DNA of 29,030 bases, taken from positions 1-29,030 of the IMG/VR virus record IMGVR_UViG_3300048609_000057, one strand, 5' to 3'. The translations under genes and the position numbers were made by a program. Every line of letters begins with the position of its first letter. The first letter of the stretch is position 1. This document shows positions 27,913 through 29,030 of the stretch, in pieces. Origin of the DNA: a virus. The notes under the pieces were generated by a model that was given only the letters and a program-made list of their open reading frames with translations, was not told the origin of the DNA and did not search any database.

Positions 27913-28773
27913 ATGGCAAAGCACGGGAAGAACGGCAAGCGAACAGACTTGTTCATGATCGATCCAGACAACCTGGTCATCATCGACGACCCCAAGCATC
28001 ACCTCTACGACCAGCGGGCCGCGTTGGCGTTGGACGAGTCCATGGTGCTCAACATCATGGCCTATGGCGTCATCGAGCCGGTCACGGTCGCCCGCGAAGG
28101 TGACCAGACCGTCGTCGTCGACGGCCGCCGTCGCGTTCTCCACGCCCGAGAGGCGAAGGCGCGACAGGCCAAGGCGGGCGAGATCACCGTGACCGTGCCC
28201 TGCGCCGTCAAGCGCGGCACCCCAGGACGGCTCCTCGGCATCTCGCGGTCGGCGAACAACTTCCGCGTCACCGATGGTCCCATGACCAACGCACTGAGCG
28301 CCCAGCGCATGCTCGACCTTGGGCAGACCGAGGAGGAGGTCGCCGCGACCTTCGGCATCGAGAGCGCGACGCTGAAGAACATCTGGCTCAAGCTGCTTGA
28401 CCTCGACGCGTCGATCCAGCGCGCCGTCGAGAAGGGTGAGATCAGCACGACCGCCGCCGCGCGGTTGGCCCAGTTCGCGCCCGCCGAGCAGAAGGCGACG
28501 ATGGCCACGATGCGCGAGAGCGGCGAGGTCACGATCGCCAAGACCAACGCCGTGCTGCGGGCCAGGAAGGGCAAGACCACGCCGACGGCGCCGTCCAAGG
28601 GGGTCATGAGGAAGCTCGTCAAGCAGGCCAGCGAGCCGGACACGCACGCCAATGGCCTCGACAACCAGTTCCTCGACGGTATCCGGTTCGCGATCGGCGA
28701 ACTGTCGCCGAAGAAGATCAAGGGGCTCACTGCCGCCCTCAGCGAGTGCGGCTACAAGGCCAAGGACGAGTAA
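27913..28773 (+). CDS. ParB/Spo0J-like N-terminal-domain protein (partition or ParB-like nuclease) with a helical C-terminal region
   Basis: ATG at 27913 with an AAGGAA SD. DPDNLVIIDDP...VIEPVTVAREGDQTVVVDGRRRVLHAREA carries the ParB GxRR box. The gene is about 67% GC against about 50% for the rest of the window. Confidence 0.7.
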   Translation: MAKHGKNGKRTDLFMIDPDNLVIIDDPKHHLYDQRAALALDESMVLNIMAYGVIEPVTVAREGDQTVVVDGRRRVLHAREAKARQAKAGEITVTVPCAVKRGTPGRLLGISRSANNFRVTDGPMTNALSAQRMLDLGQTEEEVAATFGIESATLKNIWLKLLDLDASIQRAVEKGEISTTAAARLAQFAPAEQKATMATMRESGEVTIAKTNAVLRARKGKTTPTAPSKGVMRKLVKQASEPDTHANGLDNQFLDGIRFAIGELSPKKIKGLTAALSECGYKAKDE

Positions 28774-29030
28774 CGAGAAGACATGCGTCGTCTGGCACGT
28801 ACAGCACCCGGACAGGCCGATGCCATGTGTTGATCCCAACAACATCATCGATATGAACACACTCCTGGCCGGAGAAGAAGACGGAGAAACCGCGTGAATG
28901 GCCGTACTGCACGTAAGTTGCTTTGGAAAGCTCGTAGTGGTTACCTTTTCGGGCGGCGGTCGTTTCTGTCTATCAAGGTCCCACTCTCGATCTACCCAGA
29001 GCCGTATCCTCTATTCGATCCACCTGGTAC

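Follow-up and report, generated by a model that had tools for sequence, protein, structure and literature searches.

The ParB-like gene at positions 27913–28773 of the viral stretch analysed here (29,030 nucleotides, hereafter the window) was probably imported whole by horizontal transfer from a source genome of about 65% GC, a reading to which we assign a probability of roughly 0.78. The GC content of the donor is a value that the composition of the gene alone would imply. The transferred unit is the complete ORF, from the ATG at 27913 to the stop codon at 28773, and its product is probably an orphan ParB, which may act as a ParA-independent DNA clamp or regulator. The features referred to below are the following, L001 being the only diverged relative of the window, a 243.7-kb groundwater contig that carries the same island.

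27843..27912, plus strand: 5' flank, an intergenic spacer of native composition (48.6% GC)
27913..28773, plus strand: orphan ParB-like gene, 286 aa, identical in extent to the compositional island; the same start codon is called in L001
27913..28272, plus strand: predicted N-terminal ParB/Srx-type nucleotide-binding domain, approximately aa 1–120 (AF2, Foldseek)
28123..28134, plus strand: GRRR arginine patch, G71-R72-R73-R74, counterpart of the GERR/GxRR box (alignment)
28279..28563, plus strand: predicted ParB-type HTH DNA-binding domain, aa 123–217 (PF17762 and structural matches)
28597..28770, plus strand: C-terminal helical region, aa 229–286 (AF2 helices, no Pfam match)
28774..29030, no strand: 3' flank, a mosaic junction, with similarity to L001 ending exactly at the ParB stop codon
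27817..28860, minus strand: shadow ORF of 347 aa and not a gene, its codons in exact register with those of the ParB-like gene
28062..28730, minus strand: second shadow ORF of 222 aa, not a gene, antisense to the ParB-like gene and wholly within it

Base composition and codon usage of the island

The initial annotation had described an abrupt high-GC island at the ParB-like gene, and the difference proved to be pronounced: positions 27960–28790 are 66.5% GC in comparison with 52.4% at positions 1–27912. Similar spikes in many other genes, which would have spoken against an island, were not seen, as no 800-bp interval outside it exceeded 58.1% GC (mean 52.3%, sd 2.4, n = 1084 overlapping intervals). 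The island peaked at 67.0% GC in an 800-bp interval, about 6 sd over that mean, and 300-bp intervals reached 68–69% between 28050 and 28650. The gene as a whole has a GC content of 0.657, with 0.62 at first (GC1), 0.44 at second (GC2) and 0.91 at third (GC3) codon positions. Encoded with the codon usage of the window, the same protein is expected to have a GC of 0.528 and a GC3 of only 0.533. The excess of the island thus lies purely at the synonymous sites of the ParB-like gene, and its GC1 and GC2 are ordinary. The bias is extreme for individual codons (AAG 22/22, CAG 10/10, ATC 15/15 and GCT 0/38), and, as G-ending and C-ending codons are both enriched, it reflects general GC pressure and not a preference for particular tRNAs. 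The copy in L001 shows the same pattern, with a GC3 of 0.913 where its 44 neighbours have a mean of 0.555 (sd 0.084, maximum 0.753). Compared with approximately 80 neighbouring genes of the window and L001, the codon usage of the ParB-like gene deviates by z ~4.3–4.5.

The junction had earlier been placed within the N-terminal coding region, at about 27960. This placement was not borne out: codons 1–16 already have a GC3 of 0.81, and their low total GC (GC1 0.38, GC2 0.31) is due to Lys, Asn, Ile and Phe codons. The N-terminal peptide is also homologous to the rest of the family, with the shared pattern MAKxxxxGKRxDLFxMDPD. Composition changes at the start codon, position 27913, and the anomaly covers the entire ORF and stops at both gene ends. 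The long antisense ORFs, on the other hand, had rightly been taken for a side effect. Both the 347-aa and the 222-aa ORF are present, and both were rejected as genes, being shadows of the ParB-like gene; neither matched a Pfam family. The longer one stays open because the ParB-like gene contains no TTA, CTA or TCA codons (0 of each), and its GC1 of 0.82, GC2 of 0.45 and GC3 of 0.62 are unlike the coding pattern of a GC-rich gene.

A high GC3 could in principle be native, if selection linked to translation or expression, or a constraint at the DNA level, had recoded the gene. Five other window genes have a moderately raised GC3 of 0.68–0.73, as such recoding would allow, and the ParB-like gene is thus the extreme of a mosaic and not a lone anomaly on a flat background; part of the window's GC3 heterogeneity is due to something else. 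L069, L070 and L073, the nearest homologues, are likewise 6–7 GC points richer than their own flanks, which could reflect repeated transfers or a weak family tendency. However, the change from 0.53 to 0.91 in a single ORF far exceeds all other deviations, the largest observed-over-expected GC3 excess among the other window genes being +0.19, and every synonymous family is shifted to G and C endings, a signal of mutational GC pressure rather than of tRNA adaptation. The family as a whole also argues against native recoding. Across 44 homologue loci, the GC3 of ParB follows the resident genome over a range from 0.34 to 0.93 (GC3 = 1.82 × flank GC − 0.28; r 0.91, residual sd 0.053), and the window's gene has a residual of +0.238 (z 4.5), the next largest among the 44 loci being +0.086. 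GC-rich codons are thus not something that the family requires in itself, the window's gene standing 4.5 sd away from a relation that otherwise follows the resident genome, and we consider native recoding very unlikely. On the same fit, a GC3 of 0.91 corresponds to a resident genome of 65.5% GC; together with the deviant codon usage, this agrees with the high-GC source suggested in the initial annotation.

Age, boundaries and setting of the probable transfer

Over the stretch 26581–28774, which includes the ParB-like gene and the flank upstream of it, the identity to L001 is 95.5%, and the gene itself shows 95.4% nucleotide identity with 31 synonymous and 8 nonsynonymous codon differences. The gene has thus co-diverged with its flanks under purifying selection since the split from L001. 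As the island is common to both lineages and has diverged along with its flanks, the transfer is older than the split. A simple amelioration model gave an ancestral GC3 of ~0.95; according to it, the gene was acquired before the split by an interval of at most ~1.1 times the time elapsed since. The "recent" acquisition proposed earlier therefore holds relative to the lineage split, although the transfer itself predates it. In the scenario that we favour, the gene would have entered the ancestor of a large phage-like genome of ~52% GC from a phage or another mobile element, shortly before the window and L001 lineages separated, and would still carry the codon usage of its donor.

The third codon positions bear on a further explanation, in which recombination among related phages is concentrated at the gene and GC-biased conversion, acting repeatedly, has raised its GC3. 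The mosaic junction at the stop codon speaks for this, the window and L001 being 95% identical up to 28774, where their blastn alignment stops, and unrelated thereafter. Effects of conversion on prokaryotic GC3 are reported to be a few points, in contrast to the +38 points observed here. Moreover, 27 of the 31 third-position differences from L001 are GC/AT differences that, while unpolarised, fit a decay toward AT, and the adjoining upstream genes, although equally conserved, have a GC3 of only 0.52–0.55. We regard gene conversion as a highly improbable source of the island.

The gene lies only 257 bp from the window end, and this raises the question of an assembly artefact, in which a GC-rich fragment of another organism was joined to a phage contig. 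The tail beyond 28774 matched none of the loci compared, a 32-nt probe from it found no match in viral or metagenome collections, and three more related contigs end inside the ParB-like gene. Nevertheless, the whole gene follows the same upstream gene in nine or more contigs that were assembled separately, from several samples and with several assemblers, including an internal position in the 243.7-kb L001, and the upstream junction of the window is collinear with those contigs at 95% identity. Contigs that reach past the gene have common downstream genes, and within the gene all the other contigs are identical to L001. An artefact is scarcely credible given these data.

The boundaries of the imported gene carry few marks. 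A purine-rich putative ribosome-binding stretch, AAGGGAAAAGGAA, precedes the ATG, and no sigma-70-like promoter was found at the 5' flank; terminator-like sites around the gene occur at chance level. The two flanks share no direct or inverted repeats in excess of shuffled sequences, and no tRNA, integrase or transposase was found to mark an insertion. The route of entry would have been gene-boundary recombination typical of phage mosaicism, and not a transposon or integrase. In this the gene resembles the moron-like additions of phage mosaics, being a single ORF with foreign codons, boundaries at the gene ends and no mobility gene. Classic morons have their own promoter and terminator, neither of which was detected at the window's gene.

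The immediate neighbours of the ParB-like gene are lineage-specific ORFans. The upstream 102-aa gene is an ORFan of the window/L001 lineage: a pattern scan found no relative in IMG/VR or JGI metagenomes, and its single homologue cluster overall consists of contigs that all carry the adjoining ParB-like gene as well. An empty site, with the flanking genes present and the ParB-like gene missing, was not found in any relative in the collections.

Comparing the island with sequence collections, which had been proposed as a way to find the donor lineage, returned none. Neither blastn of the island nor megablast of 15 kb of the window gave a DNA match in 50,697 phage records. The best non-self protein relative, the sister lineage excepted, was 56% identical by alignment among the 5.8 billion proteins searched. 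With tblastn, phages and plasmids yielded only 31–39% identity, mostly in temperate phages of Klebsiella and Burkholderia, and 185,579 GTDB species genomes yielded one distant match, a Thermomicrobiales MAG with 36% identity (in the second scan; the first gave none). Most members of the family reside on phage contigs of 58–66% GC, and phage-type neighbours of the ParB-like gene include Sak4, an exonuclease, an SNF2 helicase and a primase-like gene. Contigs with homologues, which are otherwise unrelated to the window, show only isolated distant matches to it: an SNF2 helicase, a methyltransferase and an NT5C, one of each.

Predicted fold and conserved motifs

The ParB-like protein matched the Pfam family PF17762 (HTH_ParB) at aa 123–217 with an E-value of 6.4e-9 (36.3 bits in comparison with a cut-off of 22.6) and phrog_1033, "ParB-like partition protein", at 7e-33, and its family profile matched the Myxococcus ParB 7bnk at 2.7e-20. 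No match to PF02195 was obtained at E ≤ 0.1. For the N-terminal domain, AF2 predicted a structure with pLDDT values of ~86–94 at aa 11–110, 57 at aa 1–10 and 72 at aa 111–120, and the top Foldseek matches were ParB, Spo0J, Noc and KorB. Target-normalised TM-scores were 0.72–0.74 for Thermus Spo0J (1vz0) and 0.69–0.72 for the best chains of Caulobacter ParB (6t1f). The predicted HTH domain resembles DNA-complexed domains of ParB, Noc and KorB (6s6h, 6y93 and 1r71). In the C-terminal region, helices were predicted at 229–240, 251–260 and 272–278 with lower confidence (pLDDT 60–83); the region is conserved in only part of the family and, judging from the model, may possibly be a dimerisation domain.

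The arginine patch GRRR aligns column for column with the "GERR" of Myxococcus ParB and with the "GARR" of its E93A mutant, and G71, R72 and R74 do not vary among 26 members of the family. The hydrolysis residue E93 of Myxococcus ParB corresponds to Arg72 in the window's protein, and this arginine is invariant in the family: Arg replaces the hydrolysis Glu in 26/26 aligned members, and none of them has a ParA nearby. The NxxR motif (N115/R118) is conserved. For box I of the nucleotide pocket, the Q52/R54 region of Myxococcus ParB, sequence alignment gave no reliable register.

The chromosomal ParB/Spo0J proteins (7bnk, 1vz0 and 6t1f) are thus the best matches in both sequence and fold, and they share the GxRR, the NxxR and the HTH with the window's protein. 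Unlike them, the window's protein has no nearby ParA and no ParA-interaction motif, has Arg in place of E93, and has a C-terminal domain not recognisable as a ParB dimerisation domain. Similarity to KorB (8qa9) and Noc (7nfu and 7ol9) holds only at the level of fold and family, with 18–22% identity.

Partition and other candidate functions

The initial annotation had left partition protein, nuclease and accessory or anti-defence factor as options and called for a search for ParA and parS. A nuclease is unlikely. The architecture consists of a nucleotide-binding fold, an HTH and a helical C-terminus, with no nuclease domain found, and the pairing of ParB fold and ParB HTH is that of the DNA-clamp ParBs. 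ParB-like nucleases, by contrast, have the N-terminal domain alone or fused, e.g. to HNH, and lack a ParB HTH. PADLOC, which covers defence and not anti-defence proteins, gave no match for the ParB-like protein or its two upstream neighbours.

The search for partition partners brought up no ParA and no convincing parS in the window or related loci. A Pfam scan of 30 other window proteins gave no ParA family, and the deviant Walker-A motif KGGxGK[ST] was absent from six-frame translations within 6–10 kb in 77 loci carrying the ParB-like gene, a homologue of it or the neighbouring upstream gene. For the window's own genome these data cover ~40 kb of ~244 kb, so a ParA could lie elsewhere. The ParA-binding motif of the ParB N-terminus has been defined as (L/F/I)G(K/R)G(L/F/I) (PMC12704722); it is absent from the N-terminus of the ParB-like protein, MAKHGKNGKRTDLFMIDPDN, which begins MAKHGKNGKRTDLF. 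The protein scored 27.6 bits on TIGR00180, where the cut-off is 58.45, and fell far under the cut-offs of the Noc and PRTRC ParB models. The canonical parS consensus is not enriched in the window. One 14/16 match to canonical parS, TGTTNCACGTGAAACA, occurs at 9219–9234, and 36 of 100 shuffles contained a match as good, although the true site may differ from the canonical one. Recurring palindromes were not found in the window, and repeats and palindromes inside the ParB-like gene, tried as parS candidates, were explained by its GC-rich coding sequence.

These results bear on whether the imported gene encodes a classical partition ParB that segregates a plasmid-like prophage with a ParA and parS elsewhere in the genome, or with the ParA of the host. 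The full ParB-type nucleotide-binding fold with its HTH would suit this role, PHROG and record annotations name relatives "partition protein", and both the parS-like match and the part of the genome covered leave room for it. The missing ParA-type Walker-A protein, the N-terminus devoid of the ParA-binding motif, the low TIGR00180 score and a parS-like site no better than chance point the other way, as do the relatives in integrating lambdoid phages, where the gene adjoins replication genes and a partition function is not needed. A classical partition role is, in our view, unlikely.

The protein could alternatively serve as a helper of DNA modification, comparable to the ParB activators of phage thymine dioxygenases, DndB or DpdB, or as an anti-host factor binding the parS of the host. 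ParB-fold proteins do activate phage 5mYOX enzymes (PMC13229309), and the window and L001 encode DNA methyltransferases, an NT5C nucleotidase, an ADP-ribosylglycohydrolase and a DFP-like enzyme. However, the 5mYOX-associated ParBs have no DNA-binding domain (PMC13229309), whereas the HTH is clear here. No TET/JBP-type dioxygenase was found among the 30 other window proteins with Pfam, and the immediate neighbours are the ORFans described above. We find such a role decidedly unlikely.

Orphan ParBs on mobile elements have been surveyed (PMC12704722). Like those proteins and phrog_1033, the ParB-like protein combines a ParB fold with an HTH, is encoded outside parAB and has no ParA-binding motif, and its gene is located on a phage-like element and appears to be patchily distributed. 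It differs from other orphan ParBs in that the window copy is compositionally foreign, the family has GRRR in place of GERR, and TIGR00180 is matched below its cut-off. Among characterised regulators, VirB is a GxRR protein without the hydrolysis residue and has weak CTPase activity and a regulatory role (PMC10770331). The window's protein similarly keeps the GxRR and lacks the hydrolysis residue of the Shigella VirB. Unlike for KorB of RK2, VirB or Noc of Bacillus, no KorA-like partner, membrane-targeting helix or operator site has been identified for it. A tentative mechanism, which we rate at slightly less than even odds, is that the protein would load at a specific site on phage or host DNA, form a nucleotide-gated DNA clamp that hydrolyses slowly or not at all, and, like KorB, VirB or Noc, regulate or organise DNA independently of ParA.

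A broader proposal, which we hold to be rather unlikely, is that the GRRR-box orphan ParBs form a distinct phage-borne class of clamps that bind nucleotide with scant hydrolysis. They would be passed between large phages as cassettes of a single gene, and would serve either to lock onto DNA, silencing or organising it, or to disturb host parS and the segregation of chromosomes. If this were true, the very recent import would reflect selection for an accessory function.

As a case of transfer, the gene is clear but ordinary and opens no new category. The island provides a quantified instance of mosaicism involving a single gene, in a large phage-like genome that is uncultivated and from groundwater, and its codon signature points to an import that was recent when measured against the divergence of the two known lineages. 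For the ParB proteins, a partner-less phage family with a ParB fold, an HTH and a GRRR box is added to the orphan ParB nucleotide switches, and this family offers a test case for whether the loss of the hydrolysis glutamate turns a partition clamp into a regulator.

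Composition and limits of the GC island

Sliding-window analysis confirmed the abrupt high-GC island that the initial annotation had placed at the end of the window, with 66.5% GC at 27960–28790 in comparison with 52.4% at 1–27912. In 300-bp windows, GC content stayed at 46–60% from 24000 to about 28050 and was 62% at 27900–28199, 65–69% across 28050–28799, and 56% at 28650–28949. No similar spikes were found in other genes: 800-bp windows taken across the whole stretch (mean 52.3, sd 2.4, n=1084) spanned 47%–58% GC elsewhere, against an island peak of 67.0%. The island coincides with a ParB-like gene, opposite which a long shadow ORF is found.

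27913–28773, + strand: ParB ORF, 286 aa, N terminus MAKHGKNGKR, preceded by a purine-rich stretch
27817–28860, antisense: shadow ORF, 347 aa, sharing its codon register with ParB

The GC contents at the three codon positions of ParB are 0.62 (GC1), 0.44 (GC2), and 0.91 (GC3). When the same protein was recoded by the codon usage seen in 38 further genes of the window, the expected GC was 0.528 and the expected GC3 only 0.533; the island thus owes nothing to amino-acid composition and lies wholly at synonymous sites. Degenerate codon families are all shifted to G and C endings (AAG 22/22, CAG 10/10, ATC 15/15, GAG 16/18, GCT 0/38), and TTA, CTA, and TCA are absent, a pattern characteristic of genome-wide pressure towards GC. 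The absence of these codons also explains the antisense ORFs, rightly considered a side effect of the island: the 347-aa ORF is open because its stops are the reverse complements of the three unused codons. Unlike in a GC-rich coding frame, its GC1 exceeds its GC3, and neither of the two antisense shadow ORFs matched a Pfam family.

The initial annotation further proposed that about 15 native codons near 50% GC were joined to a foreign gene body by recombination within the N-terminal coding region. The first 16 codons indeed have 50% GC overall, yet their GC3 is 0.81 (11/14 degenerate codons), and their low GC1 (0.38) and GC2 (0.31) are due to the Lys, Asn, Phe, Met, and Ile encoded there. As homology to the family consensus extends to the N-terminal peptide as well, the foreign signature begins at the start codon and a junction inside the gene was not borne out. 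Native composition is seen in both the 5′ spacer (27843–27912, 48.6% GC) and the gene preceding it (GC3 0.54), and the 3′ limit of the signature is the ParB stop codon.

Origin and age of the ParB gene

The main alternative to transfer is that high GC3 is a property of the ParB family. We computed ParB GC3 and the GC content of the flanks for 44 non-redundant homologue loci from IMG/VR and the contigs of the closest database matches. GC3 ranged from 0.34 on a contig of 33% GC to 0.93 on one of 66% GC and was strongly correlated with flank GC (slope 1.82, r 0.91, residual sd 0.053). Family GC3 thus follows the resident genome: nothing intrinsic to the family requires GC-rich codons, and its members normally equilibrate with their hosts, which argues against a family property. 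The outliers are the window's ParB and that of L001, the only diverged relative locus, both with a residual of +0.24 (z 4.5–4.6), the next largest being +0.086; under the fit, a GC3 of 0.91 is predicted for a genome of 65.5% GC. The window's copy is not yet equilibrated with its resident genome.

The majority of homologues are found in phage contigs of 58–66% GC, from which the donor could plausibly have come. No detectable genes are shared between the window and the four closest contigs with a homologue, all homologue loci show only isolated distant matches to it (SNF2 helicase, methyltransferase, and NT5C), and 185,579 species-representative genomes contained a single, distant ParB copy. The suggested transfer from a high-GC source is supported in itself, though not with an intragenic junction; the searches retrieved no donor.

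The ParB protein of L001 is 97% identical. Its gene is located on a groundwater metagenome contig of 243.7 kb, and numerous shorter contigs from further samples also carry it; as the gene is identical among all of these, only two lineages are known. The L001 gene is also an island, with 65.3% GC in comparison with about 52% and a GC3 of 0.913 in comparison with a mean of 0.555 (sd 0.084, max 0.753) for 44 neighbouring genes. The window and L001 are collinear with 95.5% identity over 26581–28774, and their similarity extends precisely as far as the ParB stop codon. Within the gene, 40 positions differ (95.4% identity), 31 of them at third positions, and the codon differences comprise 31 synonymous and 8 non-synonymous changes. 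This shared, flank-like divergence and the excess of synonymous changes indicate that ParB predates the split, diverged with its flanks, and has been under purifying selection.

An assembly chimera is excluded by at least nine separately assembled contigs in which the whole ParB gene lies 3′ of the same upstream gene. Three more contigs end within ParB: two of them, from different samples and assemblers, break at nucleotide 373 of the gene and the third at nucleotide 146. All are identical to L001 as far as the break, a pattern suggesting that coverage falls within this GC-rich gene or that strains branch at this point. The terminal 257 bp of the window (28774–29030) matched none of the fetched loci, and a 32-nt probe from it retrieved nothing from public viral or metagenome collections; the segment could represent a mosaic junction, or the window could end in an unresolved assembly branch.

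Acquisition of the gene had been called recent, and a two-state relaxation model with an equilibrium GC3 of 0.53 supports this in relative terms, the substitutions being unpolarisable and the outcome model-dependent. With 27 GC/AT third-position differences, the modelled common ancestor has a GC3 of about 0.95. Even if the donor GC3 had been 1.0, acquisition would precede the split by only about 1.1 times the time elapsed since the split; halving of the GC3 excess would require about 7 times that elapsed time. Flanking direct or inverted repeats did not exceed shuffled controls, no tRNA or promoter-like site was found, and the neighbouring genes showed neither an integrase nor a transposase. 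The gene would have entered by ordinary phage gene-boundary recombination, a route consistent with limits at the gene ends and with the stop codon as a mosaic junction.

Gene content of the window

The window contains a phage-type replication and recombination module with a Sak4-like annealing protein, an exonuclease, an SNF2 helicase, a primase-like protein, and a DNA methyltransferase, alongside many ORFans. This fits an origin from a large phage; no structural genes were seen. Further genes are listed below.

9522–12158, + strand: MVP-like protein, 878 aa (MVP shoulder PF11978, 3.4e-30; vault repeat PF17795, 3e-11)
13353–13871: YpsA/SLOG (DprA-like) protein
15166–16107: ADP-ribosylglycohydrolase (1e-65)
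17959–18654: NT5C 5′-nucleotidase
19978–20544, + strand: fusion of FHA (1e-12) and YbaB/EbfC nucleoid-associated DNA-binding (1e-11) domains, conserved in L001
26128–26580, + strand: 150-aa ORF with an N-terminal low-complexity run, SRTRTRTRTKTKTKTT

The product of 9522–12158 resembles the eukaryotic major vault protein (MVP), which is about 861 aa long, and matches the rat and human structures over aa 496–770 (5.7e-18). Bacterial MVP homologues have been reported, according to a preprint (bioRxiv 10.1101/872010), and the occurrence of one in a large phage-like genome seems to merit examination in its own right. At 0.68, the GC3 of this gene is above the window norm, and GC3 reaches 0.68–0.73, against a background of about 0.5, in five genes (4891–6519, 9522–12158, 26128–26580, 26644–26853, and 26912–27142). 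These form a second, milder compositional class and may be older, partly ameliorated imports, or their GC3 may be expression-linked. The YpsA/SLOG, ADP-ribosylglycohydrolase, and NT5C genes, all nucleotide- or ADP-ribose-related, lie within about 5 kb of each other and may function in counter-defence or nucleotide signalling. The C terminus of the 150-aa ORF has a weak match, below cut-off, to ribosomal protein L7/L12 (2.7e-4). In L001, a 781-aa protein encoded from 20669–20861 onward, about 10 kb 3′ of ParB, has a Cas12f1-like TNB domain (PF07282), so that this jumbo phage-like genome would encode a TnpB/Cas12-like nuclease.

The ParB-like protein and its proposed mechanism

The protein matches the ParB HTH domain in Pfam (6.4e-9) and phrog_1033, "ParB-like partition protein", in PHROGs (7e-33); its score for the canonical ParB model, 27.6 bits, is below the curated cut-off of 58.45. 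A profile of 26 family members retrieved Myxococcus ParB (2.7e-20), Thermus Spo0J, Noc, Caulobacter ParB and, weakly, KorB, and Foldseek returned the same ParB set for the AlphaFold model (pLDDT 83), with target-normalised TM-scores up to 0.74. A nine-residue segment (consensus GxDTxDGPE) is missing at aa 24–26 (27985–27990) in the window's ParB, its L001 counterpart, and one distant family member; the other 23 aligned members keep it immediately before a conserved HPLYDxR motif.

Residues G71, R72, R74, and N115 are invariant across the family. N115 is aligned to an Asn of Myxococcus ParB that we take to be the phosphate-binding N127. In the arginine patch, VVDGRRRVLHAREA, G71-R72-R73-R74 is the column-by-column counterpart of GERR, which places R72 at the position of Myxococcus E93, one of two residues assigned to CTP hydrolysis (as quoted in PMC13229309).

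The check for partner genes was negative: none of 77 loci has a ParA-type Walker-A protein within 6–10 kb, a Pfam scan of the 30 other window proteins found no ParA, and the N-terminal ParA-binding motif is absent from the protein. The only canonical-parS-like site in the window, TGTTTCACGTCAAGCA at 9219–9234, matches 14/16 positions of the chromosomal consensus, no better than chance by shuffling, and no recurring palindrome was found. With no ParA found in these scans and no ParA-binding motif, the protein is an orphan ParB as defined in PMC12704722, and the gene is a member of an established class, the orphan ParB proteins of phages; classical partition with a distant ParA is a possible alternative. 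In cultured relatives, the gene follows the replication genes in a temperate phage's early region.

VirB retains GxRR, lacks one hydrolysis residue, and is a weak CTPase acting as a transcriptional regulator (PMC10770331). The window's ParB similarly has GRRR, with Arg in place of E93, and the VirB precedent makes slow or absent hydrolysis plausible. The protein may also act in DNA modification or against the host. By analogy with ParA-independent ParB relatives, the guess that we favour is a DNA clamp gated by a nucleotide: the protein would load at a specific DNA site and, once loaded, would regulate or organise DNA.
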